Below, in pieces: positions 8,650 through 35,073 of a stretch of 64,000 bases of DNA (positions are counted from its first letter, which is position 1; every line of letters starts with the position of its first letter). Source of the DNA: Candidatus Desulfaltia sp. (GTDB lineage: Bacteria > Acidobacteriota > Aminicenantia > Aminicenantales > UBA8522). The translations under genes and the position numbers were made by a program. The notes below the pieces were generated by a model. It ran no database searches, was not told the DNA's origin, and was given only the letters and a program-made list of their open reading frames with translations. The stretch covers positions 23,895 to 87,894 of the forward strand of contig DATKXS010000038.1 in the NCBI GenBank assembly GCA_035528895.1, in the 5' to 3' direction.

Positions 8650-8663
8650 GGAAGGAGACCGGC

Positions 8664-10120: not shown

Positions 10121-10149
10121 TTGACACTCCGCAAACAAAAAAATATAAC
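10121..10149 (+). promoter_or_regulatory. Sigma70-like promoter, TTGACA-17 nt-TATAAC, upstream of the DUF2961 gene
   Basis: Near-consensus -35 (10121-10126) and -10 (10144-10149) with a 17-nt spacer, about 50 nt upstream of an AAGGAGG RBS and TTG start at 10202. Confidence 0.4.
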
Positions 10150-10201
10150 TCCCCTGGGTGGCCTATCAAAACCATTCTCAAATCTCAAGAAAGGAGGCTC
10201 C

Positions 10202-11362: not shown

Positions 11363-11503
11363 ATCAGGCCGGGGCCGTTCCCCCCGCTACCATCCTCGGT
11401 TGCCCGGGGACGTCCTCCATTCTCTGCCTATCCCTTCTTGTCCGAATTGACAATTTCTATAACCAAACCTATATTTTGATTAGAGAAAGGGTTCGATTAA
11501 CCC

Positions 11504-14500
11504 CTATTTTTTGGGGTAAGCCGGCCGTTCCGGGAAATTCAGCGGATTCTCTCTGATCTTCTCCAGGATGACCTCGATGGCTTTCTCCAGCTGGAGGTCA
11601 CGCCCAGCCACGGCGGAACCGGGGTCATTGTCGATGAGAATATCCGGATCAGCGCCGTGGTTCTCGACCAGCCACTTCCCTTCCGGGCCGTAAAAGGCAT
11701 TGTTCGATTGTTCGACCCGGCCGTTGTCGATCGTCGTCTGACCGTTGAGGATACCGACCAAGCCACCCCAGGAAGGCACGCCGACCACGGTCCCCAGCTT
11801 CCGCGACTTGAAGTGCTCGACAAAAGCTTCTCCGTCGGACCCGTTGTTCTCATTGGATAGAACGACGTAATTGCCGTTTCCGGTCGATCCCGGATAGCGG
11901 AAGGGCACCATTCCCCGCAGGACGTTGAAGGAGTCCAGTTGCCTCTCCAGCTTGTCGATGAGGAAATACTCGGTCCAGCCGCCGGAGTTTCGCCGCAGGT
12001 CGAGGATGATCCCGTCCTTGTAGCGGAAGGCTCTCCAGTACTTGTCGAACTCGCCAATTCCGCCCGGGCCCATGGCGTTGATATGCATATACCCAACCCG
12101 TCCGTTAGTCGCCTCCGCGATGGTGCGGATGTTGTCCTGGATCCAGCGGAAGTAGCGGAGTTCCCGATCGCTGCGGATAGGCTCGACCTCGTATGTTTTG
12201 GCACCTTCCAGGGAGGGCCTGGCGTTTACCGTCACTTTGACCTTCTGTCCTCTGGTGACTTGGAGGAGCTTGAAATAACCATCCCCGGCCCGGAGCGGCA
12301 CACCGTTAATGGCCAGGAGGTAGTCATTCTCCTTGATGTCCATGTCCGGCCGGACAAGGGGTCCCGATAGGTCCAAGTTGACTTCGGTCGGGCCGTAAAT
12401 CCGGGCCAGCCTATAAAAGCCTGCCGCCGGATCAGCGACAAGGTCGGCCCCAAGAAGACCCGTGTAAAGGGGTGATCGCGGCGTCTCGGCCGGACCGTAG
12501 TCCCCCCCACCGATGTAGGTATGGGAGACACAAAGCTCGCCGACCATCTGCGACATGACCCAGTTGAGCTCCTCCCGCGATGAAAGATGGGGAATATAGG
12601 CCCGGTACTTTTCGCCCATGGCCTTCCAGTCGCGGCCGTGGAAACCGGCGTCATAGAAGAAATCCCGGTACCAGCGCCAGCAATCATTGAAGATCTGGTT
12701 CCATTCCTTCTGCAGATCAACACGATAGAGGAGAGTCGAAAGGTTAAGCTTCTCGCCCAATCCCTTGTTCTGATAGGCCTTATCAACGGATACCCAATAG
12801 ATGTCGTCTTCTTTCCGGATGATCAGCTGCCCGCCGTTTGTCGAGAGGTCGAACTCGCGTATTTTATCGCCAAGGATAACCTCTTTTCCGGCGGCGACAT
12901 CGAAGATGTGGAGGTCCCACTTGGTGGCGCCGCGGGGCGCGAAGATCTCCTCATACTCATCGTCGGTGAATTTGTCCACAGAGGCATAGAGAACCTTGCC
13001 CTTGCCAGCTTTGAGGTGGAAATAGTTACCCGCTGGAACGGGAAGCGGATAAACCCGCTTGGACAGTCCTTCAAGGTCGATGCGAAAAGGCCCGACTTCT
13101 CCTTTTTTATCGCTTTTTTCCTCCGGAGTCTCTCCCGCAAAAGGCGGCTTCTCTCCGGCCCTGAGCTGCACGGCCATGATCTGCTGGGGAGAAGCGATGA
13201 CGTGGTTGTCCTCATAGAAATCCATCTGGACGCCGAAATTCCGGCTGGACACAAAATAAAGATAGCGGCCCTCAGCATCGAAGGACGGGTAAAGATTATC
13301 GTAGAAATCGTCGGTGACGGCATGGCGTTTCTCCGTCTCCGTGTCGTACAGGAAGATCCGGCTGTTACGATTGTATTGGACGAGGCTGTAAGCGATCCAG
13401 CGGGAATCGGGCGCCCAGGAATAATCGCTGATCTCCCAGTAGAACTCGTCGTTCTTCATCTGGTTGGAGGAATCGATTTTCTTGAGTTTCTTGGACTCCA
13501 CGTCGATAACAAAGATCGAGAAATCCTTGTTGCCGAAGAGAATCTTCTTCCCGTCCGGCGACCAGAGGAGGTGATAAACCGTTCTATCGAGATCGCTGGT
13601 CAACGGCGTCCATTCTCCACCATCTGCTTTTTGGAGATAAAGCTGGTAATCGCCGCTCTTGTCCGAGAAGAACGCGATCCTTTTCCCATCGGGAGAGGGA
13701 GCCGGGTACATTTCGCGCGTGCCGGGTGTATTGGAGAGGTTGACCGCTGGCTCTTTCGCCGTGGGCACGGTGAAGACGTCTCCCCGAGCTTCGAGGACCA
13801 CGGCCTCGCCATCATCGGCGATCTTGAGATGGTGGATGTATTCGCGCGGGCTGATAACGCGGTCGCGAAGGGCCCAGCGGTCGGAGGGGACGAGCACTGC
13901 AATTTTATTTGATTGTCCGGACGCAACGTCGAGGACACGGAGATAGCCGTCCTGGACGTAAACGATCGTTTGGCCGTCGGTCTGGGGCATCATCACGTCG
14001 AAATCGGCATAGCTCGTGACGGGACGGACCTCACCGCCGCCGATCTTCTGGGCGTAGATGTTGGAAATCCCATTCCCCCGGTCGGAAACGAAATACATTG
14101 TCTCGCCAATCCACATCGGATAGCTGTTCTTGCCCACGTAGTCCGAGACGGGCGTATACTTCCGGGTGCGGCCGTCGTACATCCAGATGTCCTGGTAGCG
14201 TCCCCCTTTGTACCGTTTCCAGTAATATTCCTCGGTGCCGCGGCGGCAATAAAGAAAATTCTGTCCGTCGGGTGAGAAGCTGATGAGCACCCCTCGCTCC
14301 AGCGGCAAACGCTCGGGGGCGCCGCCCTTGACGGATACATAATAGAGGTTGGGATCGCGGCCGATGACGTTCTCGAACATCGACCGGAAAACGACCTTGG
14401 CGCCGTCAGGCGTCCAGCCCACGACATCGGCCGATCCCGGCTGGTAAGTCAGCCGGGTTGGAGCTCCTCCCTCGGCCGGCATGAGATAGACCGACGGGGA

Positions 14501-15406: not shown

Positions 15407-18400
15407 CTAAAATGTTTTTAAAAAGGAGCAGTTATGGATCTTGACCAGGCCGGCGCCGCCGCGGCGGACCTCTCCCCGGAGGCAGCAGACGGGCGGCTGT
15501 CCGAAGCTCAAACAACGCCTCTCCCCCACCCCCTCGAGAAGCCCGGTCTCGTCCTCAAATAAATAAAAATACTTACTGCCGTTGCTCGTGTCCTTGAGCC
15601 GAGCATCGACCACCCGCACCACGAGCTCTACTTGCTGTCCGAAGTAATTGCCCAAATCTTTGACCCGGAGCTCCGGCCTCTTCCCTTCGTAGAGCTCGAG
15701 GGAATCGGGCCCCGGGCTGAAGCCGAGGGAGTCGACGAGCATCTTGGCCTTCTCGAGCGAATTCATGTCCGCGACCTCCTCCATGTCCTCGAGCCCCTGG
15801 AAATAGCGCAATATCTGCCGCGTCCGCCGCGGCTCGAGGGAATCGAACACCCCGGCCTTGATGAGCGAAAGAAGCTCGGCCCTTCCGAGATGGACGCGGG
15901 CCAGGAAATCCTCGACCGAAGCGAACTCGCCATCCTTGCGCTCAGCGACGATCTTCTCTATCGTCTTGACCGCCAGCCCCTTGATCGAGGTCAAGCCGAC
16001 GCGGATGTTGGACCCCTCGACTTCGAAGAGATGGCCGCTCCGGTTGATGTCCGGGCCCAAGAATTTGATGCCGCGGCGTTTGGCCTCTTCGATGTACTCG
16101 CTGAGCGGGTAGTAGCCGCCGCCGGCGTTGAGCACCGCCGCAAGATAGGGCACGGTGTGATGGACCTTGAGGTAGACGGCCTGGTAGGACATGGCCGCGT
16201 AGGAGGCGCTGTGGGCCTTGTTGAAGGAGTAGCCGGAGAATTTCTCCATGGTCGCCCAGAGCTTTTCGATCTCGGCGGTCGGGTAGCCCCGCTCCCGCGC
16301 CTCGCGGAAGAACTTTTCTTTGAGCGCCGACCGGGTGCCGTTCTTTTTCTTGAGCGCCCGCCGCAGCAGGTCGCCTTCCTCGGGCGGCATCCCCGCCACC
16401 CGCTCCGCCACCTGCATCACCTGCTCCTCGTAGAGGAGAAGCCCGCCGGTCTCAGGCAGGATTTTCTCGAGGAGAGGCTCCCGGAACGTCTGCCGCTTCT
16501 CCCGCGCCCGGAGGAGCGCCTCTTTCATCCCGCTCTCGGTCGGGCCGGGCCGGATGAGGGCCAGGGCCTGGGTCAGTTCGTAGATTGTCTCCGGCTTCAT
16601 CCGCCGGAGGAGGTTCATCATGGCCGGACTCTCCACCTGGAAGCAGCCGATGGTCTGGGCTGTCTGGAGCAGCTTGTACGTCTTGGCGTCATCGGGCGGG
16701 ATGCTCCGGAGGCCAAGCCTCTCCCTGGTCTCGGAGATGGCCGCCAGCCCCCGCACCGAAAGGAGGTCGAGCTTGATGAGCTTCAGGTCCTCGACCGCGT
16801 CCCGGTCGAAATGGCTCATGACGAGCCCCTTGGCCGACTCCTCGAGCGGGAGGAAGCGGGTCGCCGGTGCGGGCGTGAGGATGACGCCTCCGACATGGAG
16901 CGAGATCTCGGCGTAGACGCCGCCAAGTTGGGAAGCCATCTTCCAGACCTCGAGATGGCCCGCGGCCGGCTTGTCCCGCCGCAGGAAATCGGGCTCGGCG
17001 AAGAACGGGATCCTCTTCGTCAGCGACCGCGCCTCTTCCGGCGGAATGCCGAAGGCCCGGGCCGTCTCATAGAGAGCGGAGCGGGCGCGGTAGTTCTTCA
17101 GGCTGCAGACAAAGGCCGCCCCCGTCCTCCCCTGCCCGTATTTTTTCAGGACATAGTTGAGGACCTCGTCGCGCCGGCGGGAGTCGAAATCGAGGTCGAT
17201 GTCCGGTGGGTCGTTCCGGCCGGCGTTGAGGAAGCGCTCGAAGTAGAGATCGAACTCGACCGGACTGACGTGGGAGACACCGAGGAGGTAGGCTAAGTAG
17301 GAGGAGGCACCCGAACCCTTGAGGTTGTGGAGGATGCGGTGGCGACGGGCGAACTCGATGACGTCGTGGACGATGAGGAAGTAAGGCGCAAACCCGGATT
17401 TCTCGATGACATCCAACTCCCGGCGGGCCCGCTGCCTCTCCCGCCAGCTCAAATCCTTCGCGCCGCGGAGCCGCTCCATGACGAGCCCGCGCAGCGGCGT
17501 GGGAAAGAGGTCGGGAGGGAGCGGCGGCACGATCTCCTCAAAGGCGAAGCGGCATTTTTCGGCGACCTCAAATGTCCTCTGGAAGGCATCCTTGACGGCG
17601 GGACCGAGCTTGCGGAGGGCGACTGTTTCCTGGTCCGGGCCGAAGAGCGTCGTCCTTTCCGCCAGCCTGTCCTTCTCCGGAGGATAAGGGACCTTCCTGG
17701 TGATGGCGTGGAGAAGGATGAGGCGCTCCGGGCTCTGGACGAATTTCAGCGGGTTGGCCCAGACGAGGGGAAGGCCATGGGTGCGGGACCATTCCGCCGC
17801 CCGACTGAAATTCGCAAAATCACAGCCCAGGTAGAAATCGCCATCGCTGAATGAATCGAGAACAACGCCGGTCCCGTTGCCTGAATTGACCTGAAAACCA
17901 GCGGCGTTCTTGCCGGGACGATTTTCCGCGATAATCTTGAACTCCGCCGGCAGGTCGATGTCCTCAGCCCTGGGAATATATACGGTGACGAGGCCCTCGG
18001 TCGCCAATCGAACCACTTTTTCCCCTGTTTCTTTCTCCCCTTCTGGCATCGATCCTCCCACTCCATTCCCAGCCTGAGTCTTTGCTTTCGCCGTTGCGCT
18101 CTTCCCGTCAACTGGCTTTCTTCCCCACTCTCCTGCTTGCCTTACCAAGGCTGCACTTTCCTCACGCGCTGTGTCTATTTTTCCTTCTCTCGTCTCTCCT
18201 TCTTCTTTCGGCCGCCGCCCCTTCTGGTTGAATATCTCCATCAAATTCCAGTAGCCCTCCCGGCTTTTGACGAGGAAGACAAACTGTCGGCCGCCGACCG
18301 CGAGCTCGCAACCGAAAAGGGGCCGCGCCCCCCGCGCTTCCGCCGCCCTCTTCCACTTCGCCCAGCCGTAGATATTCTCGATGTCGGCGAGGGCCGCCGC

Positions 18401-18505
18401 CCCTATCCTTTTCCGCGCCACCCACGCCGCCGCTTCCTCCAGCGTGACGCTCCCCTTCCCCCGGCTGTAAACCGAATGGAGACGCAGCGGGACGAACATG
18501 CTCAA
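15407..18505 (-). CDS. dnaE2: Error-prone DNA polymerase III alpha-subunit paralogue DnaE2 (ImuC)
   Basis: 1032 aa with an N-terminal PHP domain (MFVPLRLHSVYS), a Pol III alpha core, and no C-terminal tau-binding extension. Co-directional with dinB and lexA immediately upstream. Confidence 0.8.
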   Translation of the reverse strand: MSMFVPLRLHSVYSRGKGSVTLEEAAAWVARKRIGAAALADIENIYGWAKWKRAAEARGARPLFGCELAVGGRQFVFLVKSREGYWNLMEIFNQKGRRPKEEGETREGKIDTAREESAALVRQAGEWGRKPVDGKSATAKAKTQAGNGVGGSMPEGEKETGEKVVRLATEGLVTVYIPRAEDIDLPAEFKIIAENRPGKNAAGFQVNSGNGTGVVLDSFSDGDFYLGCDFANFSRAAEWSRTHGLPLVWANPLKFVQSPERLILLHAITRKVPYPPEKDRLAERTTLFGPDQETVALRKLGPAVKDAFQRTFEVAEKCRFAFEEIVPPLPPDLFPTPLRGLVMERLRGAKDLSWRERQRARRELDVIEKSGFAPYFLIVHDVIEFARRHRILHNLKGSGASSYLAYLLGVSHVSPVEFDLYFERFLNAGRNDPPDIDLDFDSRRRDEVLNYVLKKYGQGRTGAAFVCSLKNYRARSALYETARAFGIPPEEARSLTKRIPFFAEPDFLRRDKPAAGHLEVWKMASQLGGVYAEISLHVGGVILTPAPATRFLPLEESAKGLVMSHFDRDAVEDLKLIKLDLLSVRGLAAISETRERLGLRSIPPDDAKTYKLLQTAQTIGCFQVESPAMMNLLRRMKPETIYELTQALALIRPGPTESGMKEALLRAREKRQTFREPLLEKILPETGGLLLYEEQVMQVAERVAGMPPEEGDLLRRALKKKNGTRSALKEKFFREARERGYPTAEIEKLWATMEKFSGYSFNKAHSASYAAMSYQAVYLKVHHTVPYLAAVLNAGGGYYPLSEYIEEAKRRGIKFLGPDINRSGHLFEVEGSNIRVGLTSIKGLAVKTIEKIVAERKDGEFASVEDFLARVHLGRAELLSLIKAGVFDSLEPRRTRQILRYFQGLEDMEEVADMNSLEKAKMLVDSLGFSPGPDSLELYEGKRPELRVKDLGNYFGQQVELVVRVVDARLKDTSNGSKYFYLFEDETGLLEGVGERRCLSFGQPPVCCLRGEVRRGGAGLVKIHNCSFLKTF

Positions 18506-18653
18506 GCTCTATTCCCTCTCCCCCTCTCCTTCATCCTCCCCCGCCAACTAGAGAAGGAAGACGAGAGTCGCCGATCAATCCTCCTCCCCTGGTGGGAGGA
18601 GGTCGGGAGGAGGGGGATTTCTTTATTCAGAAGAGACACGCGCATCATGACGA

Positions 18654-19877
18654 TTACCTTGTCAACGACGCGGTCTTGAGGACGAACCCGCGCCTCTGCT
18701 CGAACTCGTAGACGGTGTCGAGCATCTTTTCCCGGACCGTCAGGAGCGAGCCGAACCCGTACTTCTCCCGCACCCGGTCGACGGCCGCACCCAGCCGCTC
18801 TTCCCGGTCCGAGTACGGCTCGAAGAGAGAAAGGGACCTGGCCCTGACCAGGTCCGAGGCCTTGACGCCGACGAGCCTCAAGGCCAGCCGCGACGAGGCG
18901 AAAAGATTCAGGAAAAGGTCCTCGGCGACCCGGTAGATCCCGCCCATCTCCTGGAGGGGTGTCAGCAGGAGGCGGCGCCGCACCTCGGTCTTGAAGTCGG
19001 AGTAGCGGGCCTTGACCTCGATGACGTGGGCGAAGAGGTGCTCCTGCCGCAGGCCGAGGGTCAGCCGGTCGCAGAGATAGGCGAGATGAGCGAGGAGCAG
19101 CCGCCTGTCCCAGAGGTCCTCGAGGAAGGTCGTCTCCCGCGAGACGGACTTGGGGACGGTGGGCGTAAACACGGGCCGGCTGTCGATCCCGCGCGACTGA
19201 AGATAGACCTCCTCGCCCTCGAGACCGAAGAGGGAGCGCAGCGCCGGCCGCGGCATCCCCCAGAGGTCGCCGATCTTGTGGATGTTGAGCATCCGGAGGA
19301 CGACCTGGGCCTTGGGCCCGATCCCGGGCAGGCTCTCGATGCCGAGGCCGCGGAGGAACTCCTCCTCGCAACCCTCCTCAACCTCGAAGAACCCGGCGGG
19401 CTTGGCCTTTTTGGTGGCCAGTTTGGCCAGGATCTTGTTGGGCGCCATACCAACCGAGACCTTGAGTCCGGTCGCTTTCTCAATGCGCGCCTTCATCTGC
19501 CGGGCGACGGCGGAGAAGGACGAATAGAGCGGCCGGCAGCGGGTGAAATCGAGGTAGGCCTCGTCGAGCGAGGCCTCCTCGACGTCGGGCGTGTACTCAT
19601 GGAGGATGCGGAAGAACTTCTCGGAGAAGGCCTGGTAAACCTGGTAGTTACCGCGGATGAAGAGGCCGTTCGGGCAGAGCTGGTAGGCCTTGCGCAGGGG
19701 CATGCCGGAGTGGACGCCGTAGCGGCGGGCCTCGTAGTTGCAGGTCGAGGCCACGCCCCGCTCGTGGGGCAGACCGCCGACGATGACCGGCTTCCCTTTC
19801 AGGGCGGGGTCGAGCAGCTCCTCGACGGCCGCGAAAAAGGCGTCGATGTCGATGTGGACGATCGAGCGGCGCTTCAT
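18654..19877 (-). CDS. dinB: Y-family DNA polymerase (DinB/Pol IV-like; occupies the ImuB position of the cassette)
   Basis: MKRRSIVHIDIDAFFAAVEE... and SLDEAYLDFT retain the catalytic Asp/Asp/Glu, followed by little-finger-like helix-hairpin-helix regions. The longer annotated N-terminal extension is not supported. Confidence 0.75.
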   Translation of the reverse strand: MKRRSIVHIDIDAFFAAVEELLDPALKGKPVIVGGLPHERGVASTCNYEARRYGVHSGMPLRKAYQLCPNGLFIRGNYQVYQAFSEKFFRILHEYTPDVEEASLDEAYLDFTRCRPLYSSFSAVARQMKARIEKATGLKVSVGMAPNKILAKLATKKAKPAGFFEVEEGCEEEFLRGLGIESLPGIGPKAQVVLRMLNIHKIGDLWGMPRPALRSLFGLEGEEVYLQSRGIDSRPVFTPTVPKSVSRETTFLEDLWDRRLLLAHLAYLCDRLTLGLRQEHLFAHVIEVKARYSDFKTEVRRRLLLTPLQEMGGIYRVAEDLFLNLFASSRLALRLVGVKASDLVRARSLSLFEPYSDREERLGAAVDRVREKYGFGSLLTVREKMLDTVYEFEQRRGFVLKTASLTR

Positions 19878-20071
19878 CCCGGCCTCGTTTTCATTTGAAT
19901 CGCTCTTCCGCCCTTCCCTTCTCCGTCCAGTTGTCATTGCGAGGAACCTTGTGACGAAGCAATCTCCAACTGAGATGGCTTCGCTAATGCTCGCCATGAC
20001 ATACTGTCGTACTGCATCCGCGATGACAAAAAGTCCTCCTGCAATCAGAGCCGCACATAGAGGGACCTCCC

Positions 20072-20689
20072 TCAGTACTTCCGCAGCAGGCCGACGACCC
20101 TGCCGACGACCCGAAGCTCCTTGACCTCGACTGGCGCGAACTCCGGGTTCTCGGGAACGAGGAGGATCCGGCCGTTCTCCTTGCGGAGCCTTTTCAACGT
20201 CACCGAGCCGTCGTCCAGGCGCGCCACGACCATCTCGCCGGACTGGGCCGTGTTCGTCCTCTCCAGGAGCACCCGGTCGCCGTCGTCGATGTAGGCGTCC
20301 ACCATGCTCTTCCCGGCGACGCGGACACAGAAGATGTTGCCGCGGCGGCGGCCGACCATCCACTCGGGCACGTCCACACTCTCGCCGAGAGAGTCGAAGA
20401 CCTCCTGGGCCCGGCCGGCGGGAGCGACGCCGACGAGGGGGACCTTGACCCGGTTCTCGAACGGCGAGGGGATCCCGGCGAGGCGCAACTCCCCGGCCTC
20501 ACGGCTGAGGTAGCCCTTCCTTTCCAGGCTCAGGACGTGCTTGAAGACGGCCGAGGGATTGGCCAGGCCCAGCTGTCTTCCGAGCTCGCGGATGGTCGGG
20601 GGAAAGCCGTGCTCGAGGACAAAGGCCTCGATGACCTGGAGGGCCTTTCTCTGGCGCTGGGTCAGCTCTTTGTACAATCTGTTCACCAT
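20072..20689 (-). CDS. lexA: LexA repressor
   Basis: N-terminal winged HTH (QRQRKALQVIEAFVLEHGFPPTIRELGRQLGL), a VAPAG cleavage-site region, and S24 peptidase Ser (GKSM) and Lys (TLKRL). ATG start with an AAGGTG RBS. The annotated upstream TTG start would overlap the -35 element. Confidence 0.85.
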   Translation of the reverse strand: MVNRLYKELTQRQRKALQVIEAFVLEHGFPPTIRELGRQLGLANPSAVFKHVLSLERKGYLSREAGELRLAGIPSPFENRVKVPLVGVAPAGRAQEVFDSLGESVDVPEWMVGRRRGNIFCVRVAGKSMVDAYIDDGDRVLLERTNTAQSGEMVVARLDDGSVTLKRLRKENGRILLVPENPEFAPVEVKELRVVGRVVGLLRKY

Positions 20690-20705
20690 TTTGTTCACCT
20701 TATAT

Positions 20706-20734
20706 ACAATAGGCCGCCGGGAGGCCCTTGTCAA
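20706..20734 (-). promoter_or_regulatory. Putative lexA promoter (TTGACA-17 nt-TATTGT on the minus strand)
   Basis: The -35 is the reverse complement of 20729-20734 and the -10 the reverse complement of 20706-20711, with a 17-nt spacer. A degenerate SOS-box-like element (TTGTTC-N7-ATACAA, 20691-20709) overlaps the -10 and start region. Confidence 0.35.
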
Positions 20735-22526: not shown

Positions 22527-23960
22527 CTAGCGGTCGAGGGTGACCTCTTCGCGGTAGTCGATTGATATCTTGGGCCCTTTCTTCGATTTGAGCAGCTGAA
22601 TCGCCTTAAGATATAGCTCGTTCTTCTTCTGCCAGACCCGGTTCAGGTGCCTGGCATATCCGGCGATTCCTACGTCCAGCCATTTCCCTTTTATTAGTTT
22701 TCTCACCATTTGTTTGAGCGAGTAAAACTTCTTATGGCTGAAGATCTGGGCCCGTTGCAGGTCGAAAAGGGACAAGCGGGCGGGCTGGAAGACGACATGA
22801 TGGGCATCGTACAGAGCCCAATCCCGGAACTGAATCCGATTCTCGTGACTCACCTTGTCAAAAAATTCCGATCCGGGAAGCGGCGTCAGGATAAGGAATT
22901 GAGTGGAATTCAGCTTCGACCGCTTGGCGAACTTGACCGTCTGCTTGACGGTCTTCCAGTCGTCCTCGTCAAACCCATAAACGAACATCCCATGAATGCC
23001 GATCCGATGCTTCCGGAGGACTTTTATGGCGTCCGCTATTTCTTCGACGGTCTGCTTTTTCTTCATGGATCTTAGGCTCTCCGGGTTTACTGATTCAAAT
23101 CCGATGTAGAGCGTATGGCAGCCGGCCTTCTTCATCAGCCTGACCAGATCCAGGTCTTTGGCTACATCGGCGCGCACCTGGGTCGTCCACTTGAACTTGA
23201 ACCCCTCGCGGATCATCGCTTCCAACAATTCCTTGGCCCGTTTGCGGTCGGCGGTGAAATTATCATCATAGAAAAAAATGCGGTTTTTGCGCTCGTTATA
23301 GCGCCGCAGCTCTTCCATGATATTTTCGGTCGAGCGGAACCGGTATTTCTTGCCGAACATGCTCGTCACGGAGCAGAAGGAACAGTCAAACGGACAGCCC
23401 CTGCTTGTCTGGACGGGGATGCTGCTCAACCTGGATATCCCCTTTCTCGTCGATTTGAGCAAGGAGAGATCCGGGAACGGGATTTGATCGAGGTCCTTCA
23501 CGAACGGCCGCAGGACGTTGTGAATTTTCCGGCCGTTTTCTCTATAGGACAGACTGGGAATCCCGGTGAAACTCTCGCCTTTTTCCCAAGCGTCGATAAA
23601 AGCCATCAGGGTCTGTTCCCCTTCCCCGCGGACGATGAAGTCCGCGTGCTCCAGTGCTTCATCGGCCAGGAAGGTCACATGCGGCCCCCCCATCAGGACC
23701 GGGATCCCCCGCTTCCTGACCCTGTCCGCTATGGCATAGGCCCTGGGTGCAGTCGAGGTGATGGTCGAGATTCCTACCAGGTCAGCGGATTCGACAACCG
23801 CAAAGTCGATTTCCCGCAGTTCCTCTACGAAAATTTCCACCTCCCAGCCCCGCTCCTTCATCATCGTGCCCAGGATGATCGGGCCCAGCCGGGGCAGGGG
23901 GAAGCGCGAAAAAATGTGCAGGTTGGGAGCCTTGGGTTCGATGAAAACAATCTTGCTCAT
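22527..23960 (-). CDS. B12-binding domain radical SAM protein (class B)
   Basis: N-terminal cobalamin-binding Rossmann-like domain (GISTITSTAP...VLMGGPHVT...VRGEGE) and the radical SAM cluster motif CPFDCSFC. 4-nt overlap (ATGA) with the upstream MerR-like gene. Confidence 0.8.
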   Translation of the reverse strand: MSKIVFIEPKAPNLHIFSRFPLPRLGPIILGTMMKERGWEVEIFVEELREIDFAVVESADLVGISTITSTAPRAYAIADRVRKRGIPVLMGGPHVTFLADEALEHADFIVRGEGEQTLMAFIDAWEKGESFTGIPSLSYRENGRKIHNVLRPFVKDLDQIPFPDLSLLKSTRKGISRLSSIPVQTSRGCPFDCSFCSVTSMFGKKYRFRSTENIMEELRRYNERKNRIFFYDDNFTADRKRAKELLEAMIREGFKFKWTTQVRADVAKDLDLVRLMKKAGCHTLYIGFESVNPESLRSMKKKQTVEEIADAIKVLRKHRIGIHGMFVYGFDEDDWKTVKQTVKFAKRSKLNSTQFLILTPLPGSEFFDKVSHENRIQFRDWALYDAHHVVFQPARLSLFDLQRAQIFSHKKFYSLKQMVRKLIKGKWLDVGIAGYARHLNRVWQKKNELYLKAIQLLKSKKGPKISIDYREEVTLDR

Positions 23961-24679
23961 TTCACCCTCTCTTGCTTTTTCTTGCCGTCCCTCTTCAGGT
24001 TCTTGGCTTTCAGGCTCAAAATTTCCTTCCTTTTCTTCTTGAGCAGGTCTTCCCAGCGCTTGATACCCTTATCGAGAATTTCCATCTTGTCCAGGACGAC
24101 CTTGATCTCCATGAGCATGGCCTCCAGCTTGGTCGAAACCTCGGCCTTGGGGAAGCCCCCCAGATTTTCCTGGATAGCCAAGAAATATCGAAAATAATCG
24201 GATATCTCCTTAATTTCCTCGAGGGTGTAGCCGAAGAGCTGAAGGTCACGGATGAGTTCGCAAAGATAGATATAGCCTCCCGAATAGAGCCGAAACCCGC
24301 CCTCGCTGCGCATATCGGGCTCGATGATACCCTTGTCCTCCCAGTGTTTGATCGTCCGCGGGCTCAGCCCGACGCGTTCGGCCAGGTTCCCGATGGTCAG
24401 GTACTGGTCCGGATCCTCGGGTTTTCGCTTTCTTTCGGCGGTCTTCGGCAGCCCCACTTTTTTGAGAATTTTCTGAATATCCTCTGTTTCGTAACCGAGA
24501 TCGGTGAGCTTTTGAATATATCCGATCCTCTCCATCACCTCTTCCGAATAGAGAGGGACCCGGTCCTCGGTGAAACCGACCGGCTTCAGCAGTTTGGTCC
24601 TCTCCCATTCCCGGAGAGACGCCTCCTCGAGCTTAAACCTGGCGATAAACTCATCGCGGGTGAAGATGTGATTGTTCAA
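23957..24679 (-). CDS. MerR-family transcriptional regulator with tandem MerR-like HTH halves
   Basis: A clear MerR HTH (YLTIGNLAERVGLSPRTIKHWEDKGII...FRLY) in the second half, and a weaker MerR-like segment in the first half (FTRDEFIARFKLEEASLREWERTKLLKP...RVPLY). TTG start. Confidence 0.65.
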   Translation of the reverse strand: MNNHIFTRDEFIARFKLEEASLREWERTKLLKPVGFTEDRVPLYSEEVMERIGYIQKLTDLGYETEDIQKILKKVGLPKTAERKRKPEDPDQYLTIGNLAERVGLSPRTIKHWEDKGIIEPDMRSEGGFRLYSGGYIYLCELIRDLQLFGYTLEEIKEISDYFRYFLAIQENLGGFPKAEVSTKLEAMLMEIKVVLDKMEILDKGIKRWEDLLKKKRKEILSLKAKNLKRDGKKKQERVK

Positions 24680-24842: not shown

Positions 24843-25568
24843 ATGGCCAAAGAAAAGCAGCCCAACTCCGAACGACTAAAAAAAAGGCTCGACCTCGAGA
24901 CGCCCCTCATCGGCTTCTACGATGCCCCGGACCCGGCGATCTTCGAGCCGCTCGTCTCCCCCGAGGAACGCCAATGCGTCTATGCCTTTTATCAGTGCTG
25001 GCTCCGGGGCGAGACGCTCCATCTCACCAAGGATCGATACGGCTGCGGCGGCGCCGGTCATTGGATGTGGGGAGTGCAACTTCGGTCGAGAAAGGAATTC
25101 CTTGAATTCCTGGCCAACGATGAAGGGCTAAAGGTCTCGCGCTCGCTCATGGGAAAATGGATAGACGCCGCAAAACCCTACCGGGCCGAACACGCTCATC
25201 TCTTTCTCGGACCACTCAAGGAAGACGCCTGGCCCTATGCCAAATCCATCACCTTCCTGGTGAACCCGGACCAATTGAGCGCCCTGGCCATCGGCGCCCA
25301 GTACCGCAGCGCCCCCGAAGATCCTGCCCCGGTGATCGCCCCGTTCGGGTCGGGGTGTTCCCAAATCCTGCCGTTTGTAGATTTGAACATCGCCCAGGCA
25401 TCGATCGGGGCCACTGACATCGCCATGCGGCAACACCTTCCCCCGGACATGCTGAGCTTCACGGTCACGCGACTGATGTTCAAACAGCTCTGCGAGCTGG
25501 ACGAGAGGAGTTTTCTCTACAAGCCTTTCCTGGAGCGGCTGAAGCAATCCCGAGGCGGGAAGCTTTAA
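24843..25568 (+). CDS. DUF169 (COG2043) family protein
   Basis: About 240 aa with a Cys/Gly-rich core (CVYAFYQCW...YGCGGAGHWMWG) reminiscent of DUF169. No catalytic assignment possible. Confidence 0.4.
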   Translation: MAKEKQPNSERLKKRLDLETPLIGFYDAPDPAIFEPLVSPEERQCVYAFYQCWLRGETLHLTKDRYGCGGAGHWMWGVQLRSRKEFLEFLANDEGLKVSRSLMGKWIDAAKPYRAEHAHLFLGPLKEDAWPYAKSITFLVNPDQLSALAIGAQYRSAPEDPAPVIAPFGSGCSQILPFVDLNIAQASIGATDIAMRQHLPPDMLSFTVTRLMFKQLCELDERSFLYKPFLERLKQSRGGKL

Positions 25569-26281
25569 AGCTTCCAGGCACCGGCGACGATAAGATTCGT
25601 GCCGGTGATGTGAGCGGCCTTGTCGGAAGCCAGGAAGCGGACGGCCTCGGCAACGTCCATCTTCTTGCCGAAATATTCCGCTGACAGCTTCCCACCCGCG
25701 GGCATGATCCCGCCCTCGATCAGACCGGGCGACACCATGTTCACGGTGATCCCCGCTTTGAATTCCGAGGCGGCGGCGGAGCGGGTCAGAATGAGGAGAG
25801 CGGTCTTGGCCACGGCATAGGCGGTGATCTTGGAAAAGGCGGTGAGCTGTTCGACGCGGTGGTATCCGATGTTGATGATCCTGCCCCAACCGCGCCCTCT
25901 CATCTCCGGGAGCGCGGCCGTGATTCCCCAGGCGGCGCTCAGAAAAACGCTCCGGTACATCCGTTCCCAGTCGGCGGTCGTCAGCTCCTGCCAGGGCTTG
26001 ACGATGATCGGGCCGAAATTGTTGACCAGGACATCCAACCGGCCGAAATGCTCTTCCACTCCGCGGATCAACCCCCTGGCCTCCTGTTCAAAGGTCAGAT
26101 CGGCCGAGAACGCTTTGGCCGGCTTTCCTTTTTTCTCGATCTCAGTCATGACCTCAGCGGCGGCCTGCTCATTTTCTTTGTAGTGAACGGCAATGCCGGC
26201 CATGTCCTCAGCCAGCAAGACGGCGATCTCCCGGCCGATCCCCCGGCTGCTCCCGGTGACCAGAGCAATTCGCTTGTTCAT
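25565..26281 (-). CDS. SDR-family oxidoreductase
   Basis: TGSSRGIGREIA Rossmann motif, NNFG, and the Y-x3-K active-site pattern (YAVAKTA). Confidence 0.8.
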   Translation of the reverse strand: MNKRIALVTGSSRGIGREIAVLLAEDMAGIAVHYKENEQAAAEVMTEIEKKGKPAKAFSADLTFEQEARGLIRGVEEHFGRLDVLVNNFGPIIVKPWQELTTADWERMYRSVFLSAAWGITAALPEMRGRGWGRIINIGYHRVEQLTAFSKITAYAVAKTALLILTRSAAASEFKAGITVNMVSPGLIEGGIMPAGGKLSAEYFGKKMDVAEAVRFLASDKAAHITGTNLIVAGAWKL

Positions 26282-26375: not shown

Positions 26376-27044
26376 TCAGGCTTTCTGGTCCAACAACTCG
26401 GAAATGTGCTTTTCGGCGGCAAAGAGGTCCGCGGCGATAAAATCGACGCCGCTGAAATCCTGCCCCTTCGAATATTCCGAGGGCACCGCGATCGTGTGGC
26501 AGCCCGCCCGCTTTCCGGCGAGGCAACCGTTGGAAGAATCCTCGAGCACAACACTCTGTCGGGGCGCGACACCGAGTTTCTCACAGGTCGCAAGATAGAT
26601 CTCCGGGTCCGGTTTTCCTTTTTTGACCTCGTCGGAGGCCTGGAGGACGTCAAACCTGTCCCGGATCTTCAGCCGGTCAATCACGATCTCCATGAATTCC
26701 CCCTGGGCTCCCGTACAGACGGCCAGTTTCAGTCGTCCGTGGAAGGTATTCAGAATATGGGTCAATCCCGGCATCGGCTCGGACTCGTTCCTGTATTTAT
26801 CACGCATCAGGTTATCCCTCATATCCAAACCCCGCTCAGCGGAAATGGGGAGCCCCACGTCCTGGACAAAAATCCTCATCCCCTCGATGGGCCGCCGGCC
26901 CATCATCTTCCAGAGCGTCTCCTCGCTGACCTTTTTGTCAAATTGGGCGGCCATGCCTTTTTCGACCTGCCAATAAAGGCGTTCGCTGTCGATCATCAAT
27001 CCGTCCATGTCGAAGATTAAGGCCCTATACAATGCAGTGCTCAA
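26376..27044 (-). CDS. HAD-IA family hydrolase (beta-phosphoglucomutase-like phosphatase)
   Basis: DMDGLMIDS motif I, a KGKPDPEIY motif III region and a C-terminal GxxT/D motif. Confidence 0.75.
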   Translation of the reverse strand: MSTALYRALIFDMDGLMIDSERLYWQVEKGMAAQFDKKVSEETLWKMMGRRPIEGMRIFVQDVGLPISAERGLDMRDNLMRDKYRNESEPMPGLTHILNTFHGRLKLAVCTGAQGEFMEIVIDRLKIRDRFDVLQASDEVKKGKPDPEIYLATCEKLGVAPRQSVVLEDSSNGCLAGKRAGCHTIAVPSEYSKGQDFSGVDFIAADLFAAEKHISELLDQKA

Positions 27045-27247
27045 ATCCCAAGTCTGCCTATAGAGCGCTTTCGTACATGCGAGCGAAGCGGGGCAATCCG
27101 GCTCTTTGGGCTGTCCCGAGGAGAGCGAGGGATCTCATCAAGCAGTAACCTTGATGGGATCGCCATGCTCCCAAAGGTCGCTCGCAATGACAACGTAACA
27201 TAGACAATTGCGCTTAGAATAGTATACCCATCGTTAGGACCGCAGGG

Positions 27248-28774
27248 CTATCTCAACTCGCCGACGGCTTTTTCCACGGCCTCGAGGACCTCTCCCCTCT
27301 CGACGACTTCCTTGAGCGTGTTGATGTCGTTATAGAGCGGCCGGTCTTCCTCGAGATGGGCGACATATTTCCGGATGACTTCATGAGCGGCTTGGACACC
27401 CCGGCTCGGCTTGAGCGGCGCCCGGAAATCGACGGCCTGGGCGCCGGCCATCATCTCGATGGCCAGGACCGCCTGGGCGTTGTCGATGATCTGCCTGGTC
27501 TTGAGCGCCGAGGTCCAGCCCATGCTGACAAAATCTTCCTGGTCGGCGGCGGCCGGTATGGAGCCGGTCGCGGCCGGGTGGGAGAGGATGCGGTTTTCGC
27601 AGACGAGCGCCCCGGCCGTGTACTGGGAGAGCATCATCCCCGAGAACATTCCCGCCCCTTTGGTCAGGAAGGCGGGCAGTCCGACGCTGAGATGCTGGTT
27701 CATCAGGCGGTTGAGGCGGCGCTCGGAGAGGACGGACACGGTCGTCACGGACGTTCCCAGGAGCTCAAGAGCAAAGGCCTGCGGCGTGCCCTGGAAATTC
27801 GCGCCCGTCAGGACGAGCTGTTCATCGGGGAAAAAGACGGGATTATCGGCGGCGTTGTTGAGTTCGATCTCGAGCATATAGCGGGCCCATTTGAGGGCAT
27901 CCCTGGCAGCTCCGGTGACCTGGGGAGTGCTCCGCAGGCTGTAAGCGTCCTGGACCTTTTTCTTGCCGAGTTCGGCCAGAAGCCCGCTTCCCTCGGTGAT
28001 CTTCCTGATATTTTCCGCTGCTTCGAGGGCGCCGGGATAGCCCCTCACCTTGTGTAGCCGCTCGTCGTAGGCCTTCATGTTGGCGTTCAGGACTTCGAGG
28101 GTCATGGCCGCGGCGATCTCGGAGTTCTTGAGCCAGCGGTGGACATCGTGGACTTCGAGCGCCCCCAGCCCGGTGATGAAATTCGAGCCGTTGATCATGG
28201 CCAGGCCGTCCCGGGCCGCGAGGACGACCGGTTTGATGCCGGCCCGTTTCAGCGCTTCGGCCGCGGCTAGCCGCTCACCCTGATAGAACGACTCCCCTTC
28301 TCCCATAGCGCCGAGAGCGATCTGGGACATCGGGGAGAGGTCGCCGCAGGCGCCGACCGAGCCTTTTTCACAGACGACCGGGGTTACCCCGCGGTTGAGC
28401 ATCTCCTTCATCGTCTCTGTCACCACCAGCCGCAAGCCCGAATGACCGTGACAATGGCAGGAGATACGGCTCAACATAGCCGCCCGGACGATCTCGGCCG
28501 GCAGAGCCTTCCCGTAGCCGGCGGCGTGGCTGTAGATGATATATCTTTGGTATTGTTCCACCTGCTCCGGGGTCAGGACGACTTCAGAGAGCTCGCCGAT
28601 TCCGGTATTGACCCCGTACATGATCTCGCCTTTCTGGATTTTGTCCTCGAGCAGGGCCCGGCATTTGTCGATCCTTTTCCTGGCTTCGGGATGAAGCTCG
28701 ACCGGCTCGTTCTCCCGGGCGACTTTGACCACCTGTCCGATAGTCAGGCTATGTCCGTCAACAATGATGGCCAT
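27248..28774 (-). CDS. Aromatic amino-acid ammonia-lyase family (HAL/PAL/TAL/aminomutase) with an Ala-Cys-Gly MIO triad
   Basis: 508 aa, GSVGACGDLSPMS in place of the canonical GSVGASGDLxPLS, plus family-wide core motifs (NTGIG, YSLR, NPVF). No hutU or hutI genes in the window. Confidence 0.75.
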   Translation of the reverse strand: MAIIVDGHSLTIGQVVKVARENEPVELHPEARKRIDKCRALLEDKIQKGEIMYGVNTGIGELSEVVLTPEQVEQYQRYIIYSHAAGYGKALPAEIVRAAMLSRISCHCHGHSGLRLVVTETMKEMLNRGVTPVVCEKGSVGACGDLSPMSQIALGAMGEGESFYQGERLAAAEALKRAGIKPVVLAARDGLAMINGSNFITGLGALEVHDVHRWLKNSEIAAAMTLEVLNANMKAYDERLHKVRGYPGALEAAENIRKITEGSGLLAELGKKKVQDAYSLRSTPQVTGAARDALKWARYMLEIELNNAADNPVFFPDEQLVLTGANFQGTPQAFALELLGTSVTTVSVLSERRLNRLMNQHLSVGLPAFLTKGAGMFSGMMLSQYTAGALVCENRILSHPAATGSIPAAADQEDFVSMGWTSALKTRQIIDNAQAVLAIEMMAGAQAVDFRAPLKPSRGVQAAHEVIRKYVAHLEEDRPLYNDINTLKEVVERGEVLEAVEKAVGELR

Positions 28775-28936
28775 TTTCTATTCCTCCTCGGATCTGAATG
28801 AAGGGGGCATTATAAGCCTTGTCCGGGTAAAAATAAAGGGAACGCTCCCTCCTTGGCGCCACCATAGCATCAACGCCATTGCGCTTTTCCATCTTTCCCA
28901 ATAAGATACCTTGTTGAACGACACGGAGGAGATGCG

Positions 28937-29662
28937 ATGATCGAGCTCGACCACGTTTCAAAAAGCTACAACAAAGGCGCCGTCCGGGCGGTCGACGACC
29001 TGTCGCTGACTGTCCCTCCGGGGGAGATCTTCGGCTTTCTCGGGCCCAACGGGGCCGGCAAGACGACGACGATCAAGATGATCGTCGGCATCCTCGAGCC
29101 CGATGCCGGGACGATCCGAATCAACGGCCTGGACAGCCGTGCCGAGGCCCTCCGCTGCAAGGCCATGACCGCCTACGTCCCCGACGAGCCGGAAATCTAC
29201 ACGCGTCTCAAGGGCATCGAATTCCTGAATTTCATCGGCGATGTCTACGGTGTCGCCGGCCCGGAGCGCCGGCAGCGGATCGAACACTGGCTCGAGGCCT
29301 TCGAACTTGCCCGGGCGGTGGCCGATCCGATCCAGACCTACTCCCACGGCATGCGCCAGAAAATCATTTTAACGGCCGCGCTTATGGTCAAGCCCCGGGT
29401 GTTCATTCTCGACGAGCCGATGGTCGGCCTCGACCCCCGCTCCTCCCACCTCCTCAAGGAAGCCATGCGGGAGCACTGCGAACAAGGCGGGACGCTGTTT
29501 TTCTCCACCCATATCATGGAGGTCGCCGAACGCCTGTGTGACCGGATCGGGATCATCCACAAAGGGCGTCTGGCGGCCTGGGGGACGATGGCCGAGCTCA
29601 GGGACCAGGCGAAAGACAAGGCCTCGCTGGAGAATATCTTTCTGGGGCTGACTGAATCATGA
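28937..29662 (+). CDS. ABC transporter ATP-binding protein
   Basis: Walker A (GPNGAGKTT), signature (YSHGMRQK), Walker B (ILDEP) and H-loop. Confidence 0.85.
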   Translation: MIELDHVSKSYNKGAVRAVDDLSLTVPPGEIFGFLGPNGAGKTTTIKMIVGILEPDAGTIRINGLDSRAEALRCKAMTAYVPDEPEIYTRLKGIEFLNFIGDVYGVAGPERRQRIEHWLEAFELARAVADPIQTYSHGMRQKIILTAALMVKPRVFILDEPMVGLDPRSSHLLKEAMREHCEQGGTLFFSTHIMEVAERLCDRIGIIHKGRLAAWGTMAELRDQAKDKASLENIFLGLTES

Positions 29663-31347
29663 GTCCGACCACCGCCCTGGTCAAGGCCGCGCTCAATTCC
29701 AATTTCGGCTGGACGATCCTTCGCCACCGTTTTCTCGTCCAGCGGCGTGACCTCTGGCTGATCCCCCTCATCTTGCTCGGCGTGGCCGGAGTCGTGCCGG
29801 TCCTGGTGCTTTATGTCCGCCTGATAGGCGATGCCTTTGACCTCCTCAGATCCATCGGCCAGGAAAAAGCCCTGCTGACACTGGCGGTCTTGGCCGGCCA
29901 ACTCATCATCCTCGTTTTCGGCCTGTTCTATCTCATCGCCACGTTCTATTTCTCCAGAGACCTGGAGTACCTCGTCTCCCTCCCTCTCAAGCCGTTCCAG
30001 GTCATGCTGTCCAAGTTCGCCGTCGTCCTGGTCAACGAGTACCTGACCATCGCCCCGATCATTCTGCCGGTCCTCGTCATCTACGGTTTCAAGAGTAAAG
30101 GCGGGTTGGAATATTGGATATCTCTGCTTCTGGCCTATGTACTTCTCCCGGTCATTCCCTTGGCGGCCTCCGGCCTGGTTGTCGTCGGGATGATGCGCCT
30201 GGTCAACATCGGCCGCAAGAAGGACCTGCTGATCGTCCTCGGATCGCTGGTGCTCATCGCCGCGGCCCTGTTTCTTCAGTTCGGCCTGAGTCGAGCGGCC
30301 GGAGCCCAGGACGTGGACAGCGAGAAGATCATTGCCCTCATCGCCTCCCCGGACGGGCTGGTCCAGTCGATCGGCCGCCGCTTTCCGCCGTCCATCTGGG
30401 CGACGCGCTTTCTTCATGACGGTCTGATGACCGGCTCAGGGTTGTCCGGCTTGGCCCTGTTTGCGAGTTTGTCAGTCCTTCTTTTCGGGGGTCTCATGGC
30501 CGGCGCCCAACGCCTCTTCTACAGGGGCTTGGTCGGCTTGAGCGAGCGCAGCGGCGGTTCTACCCGGAGGTCAAAAGCAAGGACGGCGCTCAAAGTCTCT
30601 TCCGGCCGCCATCCTGTTCGGGCGATCTTCCTGCGAGAGTTGCGCTTGATGAACCGGACGCCGATCTTCCTGCTCAACGGCGTCCTGGGTGTTCTCATGA
30701 TTCCGATCGTCTTTGCCCTGACCCTGAGCTCGAGCCGGTCAACAAGCGACAGCGCCGCGATCCTTCGCCTCATGACGACGGCCAAGCCGGTGACAACAGT
30801 CCTGGTGACAACCATGTTCGTGATCGTCTGTGCCACGGTGAGCGGAGTCGCCTCATCCTCCTTCTCCAGGGAAGGACGGCAATTCTGGATATCCAAGATC
30901 ATCCCGGTCGATTACCGTCAGCAGGTCCTGGCCAAGTTCATCCACTGCTGGAACGTAGCCCTGCTGGGAATCGCCAGCGCAACGGCGGTCCTGATCTTTC
31001 GTTTTCAACTCCCGGCGGGTCAATGGCTGCCCGCTCTTGCCCTCGCCCTGCCCGTCACGGCATTCCTGACCGTCCTGAACCTGGCGATCGACCTTGCCCG
31101 CCCGCTGCTCGATTGGATCAGCCCTCAGAAAGCGATGAAACAGAATCTCAATGTTCTTATCGCTATGCTTCTCGACGTGGGGTTCCTCTTTCTGTTCGGT
31201 CTGCTGTTCCTCGCCTTGGACAAGGCTGGACTCGGATTAGCCGGGGTGCTGATCATTCTGTTCGGACTCATCTTGGGCTTGGCCTGGCTCGCCTTCTTCC
31301 TCATCCGGCGCCTCTCCCTCCGCCGCTACCCGGCCATCGAAGTCTGA
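29659..31347 (+). CDS. ABC exporter permease (multi-TM, putative-ABC-exporter type)
   Basis: 562 aa, highly hydrophobic with about 10-12 predicted helices. 4-nt overlap with the upstream ATPase. Confidence 0.6.
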   Translation: MSPTTALVKAALNSNFGWTILRHRFLVQRRDLWLIPLILLGVAGVVPVLVLYVRLIGDAFDLLRSIGQEKALLTLAVLAGQLIILVFGLFYLIATFYFSRDLEYLVSLPLKPFQVMLSKFAVVLVNEYLTIAPIILPVLVIYGFKSKGGLEYWISLLLAYVLLPVIPLAASGLVVVGMMRLVNIGRKKDLLIVLGSLVLIAAALFLQFGLSRAAGAQDVDSEKIIALIASPDGLVQSIGRRFPPSIWATRFLHDGLMTGSGLSGLALFASLSVLLFGGLMAGAQRLFYRGLVGLSERSGGSTRRSKARTALKVSSGRHPVRAIFLRELRLMNRTPIFLLNGVLGVLMIPIVFALTLSSSRSTSDSAAILRLMTTAKPVTTVLVTTMFVIVCATVSGVASSSFSREGRQFWISKIIPVDYRQQVLAKFIHCWNVALLGIASATAVLIFRFQLPAGQWLPALALALPVTAFLTVLNLAIDLARPLLDWISPQKAMKQNLNVLIAMLLDVGFLFLFGLLFLALDKAGLGLAGVLIILFGLILGLAWLAFFLIRRLSLRRYPAIEV

Positions 31348-33840: not shown

Positions 33841-35073
33841 ATGGACCTTTTTGAGAAATGCAGGGGTTTCTATGATGATCCCGAGTACGCCCAGAGGTAT
33901 GGTTATCCCACCAATCCCCGGACCGCCCAATCCCTCGGCCTCTATCCCTATTTCATACCCATCGACCAGGCCGAGGGGCCGGAAGCCATCATCAAGGGCA
34001 AGCACTATATCATGATCGGCTCGAACAACTACCTCGGCTTGACGATTCACCCGAAAGTCAAAGAGGCCGCCATCAAAGCCATCCGCAAATACGGGACGAG
34101 CTGCACCGGATCCCGATTCCTCAACGGCACCCTCAACATCCACCTGGAGTTAGAAGAGAAGCTGGCGAAATTCGTCGGCCAGGAGGCCGCCCTCGTGAAC
34201 AGCACCGGCTTCCAGGTCAACCTCGGCACGATCCCGGCGATCGCCGACCGCGGAGACATCATCATCACCGACAAAGAGGTCCATGCCAGCATCGTCGACG
34301 GCGTCCGCCAGGCCAAGGTCCAGAAGAACGTCCACCCCCGCTATTTTCGCCACAACGATCCGACCGACCTGGAGAGGATCCTGAAGGCCTGCCCCCCCGA
34401 GCCGGCCAAGCTGGTCATCGTCGACGGGGTGTTCAGCATGGGTGGCGATATCGCTGCTCTGCCCGAGATCGCGCCCCTCTGTAAGGCCCACGGAGCGCGG
34501 CTCATGGTTGATGACGCCCACTCGCTGGGTGTGCTTGGGGGAGGGCGGGGGACGGCCCACCATTTTGGTATCCCAGAGGATGTCGACCTCGTCATGGGGA
34601 CGTTCAGCAAGTCCCTGGCTTCGGTGGGAGGTTTCATCGCCGGCCCCAAGGAAGCCATCCACTGGATCCAACATTTCTCCAGACCGTTCATCTTTAGTGC
34701 CAGCCTGCCTCCGGCGAACGTGGCTACCGTCCTGGCCTGTCTGGATGTTTTGGAAGAGGAGCCGGAGCGGGTCGAGCGCCTGACCAGGATCGGTGAGAGG
34801 ATGAGGACAGATCTCCAGGCCATGGGATACGATATCGGCCCCACCCAGACGCCGATCATTCCCATCGTCATCGGCGACCAGTTCAACACCATCAGAGCCT
34901 GGAAGATCCTCTTCGATGCCGGAATTTACACGAACGTCGCTCTTCCCCCGGCGGTCCCGCCCAACTTCGCCCTTCTCCGGACGAGCTACATGGCCACCCA
35001 TACGGACGCCCACTTGGAAAAGATCCTGGAGACCTTCAAACGGGTCAAAGACGAGCTCCACCTCGCCGTTTGA
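33841..35073 (+). CDS. Alpha-oxoamine synthase family PLP enzyme, serine-palmitoyltransferase-like
   Basis: GSNNYLGL, GSRFLNGT, the PLP-lysine block GTFSKSLASVGGF, and RPFIFSASLPP. The N-terminal and C-terminal regions (VALPPAVPPNFALLRTS) resemble bacterial SPT more than BioF. Confidence 0.65.
   Translation: MDLFEKCRGFYDDPEYAQRYGYPTNPRTAQSLGLYPYFIPIDQAEGPEAIIKGKHYIMIGSNNYLGLTIHPKVKEAAIKAIRKYGTSCTGSRFLNGTLNIHLELEEKLAKFVGQEAALVNSTGFQVNLGTIPAIADRGDIIITDKEVHASIVDGVRQAKVQKNVHPRYFRHNDPTDLERILKACPPEPAKLVIVDGVFSMGGDIAALPEIAPLCKAHGARLMVDDAHSLGVLGGGRGTAHHFGIPEDVDLVMGTFSKSLASVGGFIAGPKEAIHWIQHFSRPFIFSASLPPANVATVLACLDVLEEEPERVERLTRIGERMRTDLQAMGYDIGPTQTPIIPIVIGDQFNTIRAWKILFDAGIYTNVALPPAVPPNFALLRTSYMATHTDAHLEKILETFKRVKDELHLAV

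Follow-up and report, generated by a model that had tools for sequence, protein, structure and literature searches.

Histidine ammonia-lyases (HALs) convert L-histidine to urocanate and ammonia and depend on the cofactor 4-methylideneimidazol-5-one (MIO). In the standard description of MIO enzymes, the tripeptide Ala-Ser-Gly is the required precursor of this cofactor. The only published variants of the tripeptide that we know of alter its first residue (Thr, Ser or Cys). Here, we analyzed a stretch of 64,000 nucleotides from Candidatus Desulfaltia sp. (contig DATKXS010000038.1, positions 23,895 to 87,894), which is called the window throughout. The window carries a gene for a HAL-type lyase in which the central Ser of the precursor is replaced by Cys. 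Ala-Cys-Gly (ACG) is probably a natural, recurrent and apparently uncharacterized alternative precursor of the known cofactor, and it is expected to give an ordinary histidase. The features of the gene are the following:

27248..28774, minus strand: predicted histidine ammonia-lyase gene of the ACG type, 508 amino acids (PF00221, TIGR01225 hutH, AlphaFold2/Foldseek)
28343..28351, minus strand: Ala142-Cys143-Gly144, encoded by GCC-TGC-GGC, MIO precursor with Cys for Ser (alignments)
28526..28531, minus strand: codons of Ser82-His83; His83 is an imidazole binder in HAL (alignment with Pseudomonas putida HAL)
27536..27538, minus strand: codon of Glu413, which corresponds to Glu414 of P. putida HAL, a HAL-specific imidazole binder (alignment)
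28783..28789, minus strand: ribosome-binding site GAGGAGG, 8 nt upstream of the ATG at 28774 (read from the sequence)

A preliminary description of this DNA had placed a Cys at the position of the MIO serine, as residue 143 with the tripeptide codons at 28351-28343. Translation and alignments gave the same result. The 508-amino-acid translation of 27248-28774 on the minus strand contains GSVGACGDLSPMS, and the codons on that strand are GCC for Ala142 (28351-28349), TGC for Cys143 (28348-28346) and GGC for Gly144 (28345-28343). In the alignments, the tripeptide falls on the MIO residue (written as 'X') of the solved HALs 7tqr and 6v6h and on Ala142-Ser143-Gly144 of P. putida HAL, the reference sequence of which was checked against PDB 1gkm. 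The Cys is thus located inside the MIO triad. Read literally, the X-Ser-Gly precursor by which the MIO superfamily is recognized would leave out the lyase, which reads Ala-Cys-Gly. Promoter and terminator scans around the lyase operon revealed nothing above background.

The Cys is a stable character of the clade. ACG was found in 120 of the 120 best database homologues, which share 79-95% identity and derive mostly from metagenome-assembled genomes of Aminicenantes. A scan of species-representative genomes yielded 556 relatives of the lyase, and the best 80 together with four contig loci made up the 84 loci that were analyzed. ACG lyases were present at 83 of these, with TGC as the Cys codon in 69 and TGT in 14. 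Since both Cys codons are in use, the residue is maintained and not merely the codon. Judged by these alignments, Cys143 is shown to be conserved under selection.

The assignment as a HAL was tested against family profiles. The lyase matched PF00221 over the full length of the profile (571 bits, residues 10-469 over profile positions 1-466 of 466), in agreement with its earlier placement among the HAL and phenylalanine ammonia-lyase (PAL) family. It exceeded the cut-off of the TIGR01225 hutH equivalog (558.6 bits, cut-off 539.15) and that of PRK09367 (578, cut-off 524). In contrast, it remained far under the cut-offs for tyrosine 2,3-aminomutase, phenylalanine aminomutase, the FlxA/BagA tyrosine ammonia-lyases and PAL; the scores and cut-offs for these tyrosine and phenylalanine lyase and aminomutase families were 395/501, 364/800, 358/700 and 257/519.

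The active site was compared with that of P. putida HAL. The lyase keeps Tyr53, Ser82-His83, Asn195, Gln277, Tyr280, Arg283, Phe329, Met382 and Glu414 (P. putida numbering), and these residues are likewise kept in all 11 clade sequences aligned. Gly144 and Asp145, which stand beside Cys143, are retained as well; together with Phe329 they are invariant in the clade, and all three surround and support the cyclization. Residues that bind the carboxylate, a His and a Glu that bind the imidazole and a Tyr that abstracts the beta-proton have been described (bioRxiv 10.1101/2025.08.13.670108). In HAL, Tyr53 and Tyr280 are catalytic, Asn195, Gln277 and Arg283 bind the carboxylate, and His83 and Glu414 bind the imidazole. 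The Ser-His pair at 82-83 does not discriminate between substrates, as the tyrosine aminomutase of Streptomyces globisporus has Ser92-His93. Glu414 does discriminate, because the aligned S. globisporus aminomutase has Gln at this position. Gln is also found there in tyrosine ammonia-lyase (TAL) and PAL.

An AlphaFold2 model, calculated from a 40-sequence alignment, had a mean pLDDT of 92.6 and a pTM of 0.92. With this model, the best PDB matches in Foldseek were the HALs of Trypanosoma cruzi (template modelling score, TM, 0.91) and P. putida (TM 0.93). Structures of HAL, tyrosine aminomutase and TAL all gave TM values of 0.91-0.94, and the model has the all-helical fold of the family. Taken together, profiles and active site point to L-histidine as the substrate. 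The preliminary description had left His, Tyr and Phe as possible substrates and an aminomutase role as a further option. This choice is not really open any more, since the hutH cut-off is passed, the HAL active-site residues including Glu414 are kept and the fold is that of HAL. TAL, PAL and aminomutase were rejected as identities on the curated cut-offs and Glu414; the Ser-His pair was not relied on.

We then asked how widespread the ACG precursor is. Among the best 150 representatives of 50%-identity clusters, about 128 had Ala-Ser-Gly (ASG), 9 Ser-Ser-Gly, 6 ACG and 1 Thr-Ser-Gly, and a few were MIO-less. In total, ACG was found in about 225 database clusters from several lineages and phyla, cultured isolates included. 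The preliminary description had regarded a natural Cys as noteworthy, which in view of these numbers was an overstatement. No fewer than three or four separate lineages have ACG. One comprises the clade of the window lyase together with P0121, its nearest ACG relative outside the clade (50% identity). Another is P0159, the nearest neighbours of which are all ASG proteins, and a further one consists of P0173 with P0258. When P0173 was used as the search seed, 101 of the best 120 clusters had ACG, a proportion that is inflated because the method favours shared short words. The existence of the P0173-type ACG clusters is not in doubt. They include proteins of Roseococcus sp. YIM B11640 and Ferrovibrio sp., which are annotated as HAL or as 'HAL/PAL/TAL family ammonia-lyase'. 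Most of these proteobacterial proteins have Arg in place of Gln277 and Leu in place of the catalytic Tyr280, and they make up a large, mostly proteobacterial paralogue group of their own (94 of 124 sequences aligned). At locus L087 (8457-11536), a canonical ASG lyase is followed in tandem by an ACG lyase with Gln277Arg and Tyr280Leu; the operon also encodes urocanase and imidazolonepropionase.

A more informative case is locus L090. Its positions 6275-14016 hold a complete hut operon with an amino-acid permease, HAL, hutI, FTCD and urocanase, and the sole lyase of this operon, P0337, is of the ACG type. The site signature of P0337, Y-SH-ACG-N-Q-Y-R-F-M-E-F, is identical to that of the window lyase, including the Phe at position 416. 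The genomic context of P0337 is strong evidence for a histidase role of a natural ACG enzyme. Some relatives lack the tripeptide altogether. P0179, P0218 and P0224 read 'GSVGY---L', with a three-residue deletion at the site of the MIO tripeptide; they presumably belong to the MIO-less trimethylammonia-lyases, either of the ergothionase or of the histidine-betaine type.

Ser and Cys exchange over short distances. A single member of the Aminicenantes clade, L061 (218-1735), has ASG with a TCG codon and is 86% identical to its ACG relatives; it is thus a natural Cys-to-Ser reversion. Similarly, P0282 (ASG) and P0173 (ACG) share 85% identity. A rough parsimony count on a tree of 395 sequences, built by the unweighted pair group method with arithmetic mean, required at least about 8 Ser/Cys changes; the tree is crude and the number indicative only. 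Free exchange between Ser and Cys would be odd for a catalytic nucleophile, but is expected if the heteroatom of the side chain is discarded when the cofactor is formed.

These data fit a maturation pathway that would run parallel to that of canonical HAL. The MIO would be made autocatalytically: the backbone of Ala142-Cys143-Gly144 would cyclize with loss of water, and the exocyclic methylidene would arise by beta-elimination of H2S from Cys143, in place of the water that is eliminated from Ser. The mature ACG enzyme would then carry the same MIO and be chemically identical to canonical HAL. From the comparisons above, we infer that the window lyase forms MIO from Cys143 and uses L-histidine as its substrate. 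Langer, Lieber and Retey reportedly found in 1994 that the S143C mutant of P. putida HAL matures post-translationally into the fully active wild-type enzyme. This precedent, the role of P0337 as the sole lyase of a hut operon and the interchange of Ser and Cys favour formation of MIO from Cys in the window lyase.

Next, the surroundings of the gene were examined. The neighbouring genes are the following:

25565..26281, minus strand: short-chain dehydrogenase/reductase (SDR) oxidoreductase, in Aminicenantes a conserved partner located downstream of the ACG lyase (PF00106)
26376..27044, minus strand: haloacid dehalogenase (HAD)-IA hydrolase gene, between lyase and SDR (PF13419; the match to the beta-phosphoglucomutase family is below the cut-off)
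28937-29662, plus strand: ATP-binding cassette (ABC) transporter ATPase, divergent from the lyase
29659-31347, plus strand: ABC permease-like protein, divergent from the lyase

The SDR, HAD hydrolase and ABC exporter of the preliminary description were thus recovered, the exporter as an ATPase with a permease-like protein. Its statement that the gene lies outside a hut operon also held: Pfam scans of the long open reading frames and tblastn revealed neither urocanase nor imidazolonepropionase in the 64-kb window. With tblastn, hutU, hutI and FTCD were absent from the window and from within 10 kb of the lyase at the 84 clade loci (E<=1e-3; two divergent query sets, which find each other at 38-47% identity). 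The search extended 10 kb to either side of the lyase, and hut genes may lie elsewhere in these genomes.

A co-oriented SDR gene is located downstream of the lyase at 48 of the 78 loci with enough downstream sequence, and at 39 it is directly adjacent (gap <150 bp), while the outer flanks of the loci vary. The SDR is absent at the other 30, and at all 13 loci below 74% identity. Its best NCBIfam match is a dihydropteridine/dihydrofolate reductase of the TmpR type, below the cut-off (213 bits, cut-off 325). The SDR orthologues keep Y-x3-K and NMVSPGL and are missing the usual catalytic Ser. A HAD gene between lyase and SDR occurs only in the sub-clade of the window (7 of 78 loci). The spacer between lyase and HAD gene (27045-27247) is 203 bp long in the window and about 10-95 bp in the relatives L001, L008, L010 and L011. 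It contains two short inverted repeats or hairpins with 12-nt and 9-nt arms and may be a small insertion; no repeat family in it was shared with other parts of the window.

The more distant, Terriglobia-like loci do not have the SDR. At two of them (L082 and L077), an ammonium transporter gene (Amt) lies immediately upstream of the ACG lyase, and in L082 (8218-11512, 17904-19439) a prolyl oligopeptidase gene also precedes the lyase. The genome of L082 has a second, canonical ASG HAL, which is located 6.4 kb away beside genes for leucine degradation. As hut genes are not linked and L082 has a second HAL, the ACG clade may not be the housekeeping HutH. Its role could be histidine catabolism by the Hut pathway with unlinked genes, release of ammonia, or a module of lyase and SDR. 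A literature search on histidine or urocanate metabolism in Aminicenantes found nothing.

We consider it likely that the window lyase is a functional MIO-dependent L-histidine ammonia-lyase, which makes its MIO from Ala142-Cys143-Gly144 and is, when mature, like canonical HAL. Several points weigh against this. A literature search returned no paper on the S143C mutant. The hut genes are missing within 10 kb of the lyase at all of the clade loci, and one genome holds a canonical HAL in addition. The literature search revealed no experimental work on a natural ACG enzyme, and a full-text search found no paper that mentions such an enzyme. Furthermore, a 2026 preprint treats Ala-Ser-Gly as required in all characterized lyases. 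Alternatively, the same MIO chemistry, acting on histidine or a close analogue, might serve the clade outside the Hut pathway, in a two-gene module with the SDR. For example, urocanate from the lyase reaction could be reduced by the SDR to provide an electron sink in fermentation, or the function of the lyase could be to scavenge ammonia. Such a module is in line with the frequent order of HAL and SDR on one strand between differing flanks, with the 84 loci lacking hut genes within 10 kb, and with the two Terriglobia-like lyases behind an ammonium transporter, one of them in the genome with the second HAL. The atypical SDR itself, without catalytic Ser and with its sub-threshold match of the pteridine/dihydrofolate-reductase type, fits as well. 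However, adjacency by itself is no proof of coupling, the SDR is missing at 30 of 78 loci and at every locus below 74% identity, and hutU and hutI may lie beyond the lyase loci that were searched. To our knowledge, the only urocanate reductases are flavoenzymes and not SDRs, which also counts against the module. We regard it as unlikely, though it is the most credible of the alternatives.

A different objection concerns the cofactor. Cys143 might not be eliminated, so that no MIO is formed and the protein is either inactive or acts on a different substrate, through its thiol or by another mechanism. Family members without MIO do exist and are active on betaines (bioRxiv 10.1101/2025.08.13.670108; 2026 preprint), and the natural ACG enzymes are known from their sequences alone. 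However, the MIO-less relatives delete the tripeptide and do not exchange its Ser for Cys; the window lyase keeps it, and an identity as MIO-less betaine lyase was ruled out for this reason. The invariance of Gly144, Asp145 and Phe329, the sole lyase of the L090 hut operon and the Ser/Cys interchange at 85-86% identity also speak against loss of the cofactor. The reported maturation of the S143C mutant points the same way. Loss of MIO is thus very improbable. The lyase could also act on tyrosine or phenylalanine in secondary metabolism, as an ammonia-lyase or as a 2,3-aminomutase, given that the gene lies outside a hut operon and that solved tyrosine aminomutases nearly match the HALs in sequence and fold search scores. 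We give this hardly any credence, because the lyase stays below every curated cut-off of these families, has Glu414 where the aligned aminomutase has Gln, and has no biosynthetic cluster nearby in the Pfam scans of the window reading frames. Finally, a single base separates TGC from a Ser codon, and the Cys could stem from an AGC or TCC codon that was misread in sequencing or assembly. The chance of this is negligible. Independent assemblies all have Cys, in the 120 homologues and at 83 of 84 loci, and the conservation and the use of two Cys codons ruled out an error.

An ordinary histidase made from an ACG precursor would be of limited biochemical surprise, since the mature enzyme is expected to be the known one. 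Its interest lies in the precursor. Nature appears to use Ala-Cys-Gly widely and repeatedly and to exchange it with the Ser form over short evolutionary distances. Evolution would thereby confirm that, of residue 143, nothing but the beta-carbon is carried over into the cofactor. A practical consequence concerns annotation. Motif filters that demand 'SG' would wrongly drop hundreds of probably active lyases; the PROSITE PAL/HAL signature is one of these filters. What remains novel is the pairing of an orphan histidase with an atypical SDR in anaerobic Aminicenantes, and possibly a different behaviour of the Cys-based maturation. It is conceivable, if decidedly unlikely, that maturation by H2S elimination differs from Ser dehydration in its kinetics or gating by redox state, and that the orphan lyase and the SDR of Aminicenantes form an undescribed route from histidine, for example by SDR reduction of urocanate to imidazole propionate, which would serve as an electron sink in fermentation.

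Further features of the window were recorded. LexA, a Y-family polymerase (ImuB-like) and a DnaE2-like error-prone polymerase form an SOS mutagenesis module at 15407-20734 on the minus strand, and a pair of LexA and Y-family polymerase is likewise found near the lyase at L002. On the plus strand, 33841-35073 encodes an alpha-oxoamine synthase with a CFB-type serine palmitoyltransferase as best match (480 bits, cut-off 640), which hints at the synthesis of sphingolipid-like lipids in an Aminicenantes genome. A B12-binding radical SAM enzyme, which resembles BchE and HpnJ and is below all cut-offs, is located at 22527-24679 on the minus strand, immediately downstream of a MerR-family regulator. 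This pair is conserved with the lyase region at L006 and L008.

Among known systems, HutH of P. putida (PDB 1b8f, 1gkm) is similar to the window lyase in its fold (TM 0.93), in sequence (about 35% identity), in the catalytic and substrate-binding residues and in the GSVGAxGDL loop. The two differ in the Cys for Ser143, in the loop DLSPM as compared with DLAPL, and in Gln198Asn, Asn412Asp and His416Phe. Unlike a typical HutH, the window lyase does not belong to a hut operon; members of the family are typically linked to hutU and hutI, but need not be. The S143C mutant of P. putida HAL reportedly had the same Ala-Cys-Gly precursor. There the Cys was engineered, whereas in the window lyase it is natural and clade-wide. 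P0337 of L090 combines the same site signature with 46% identity to the window lyase and, in contrast to the latter, has a permease, hutI, FTCD and hutU as linked genes. The proteobacterial ACG group (P0173, P0393 of Roseococcus and P0364 of Ferrovibrio) shares ACG, His83 and Glu414 with the window lyase, but has Arg at Gln277 and Leu at Tyr280, is 43% identical to it and includes the tandem arrangement at L087. The MIO-less trimethylammonia-lyases (ergothionase, 6s7j; histidine betaine lyase) have the same fold (TM 0.93) and the same imidazole- and carboxylate-binding residues (bioRxiv 10.1101/2025.08.13.670108; 2026 preprint). In contrast to these enzymes, which are without the tripeptide, the window lyase keeps it, with Cys at its centre.

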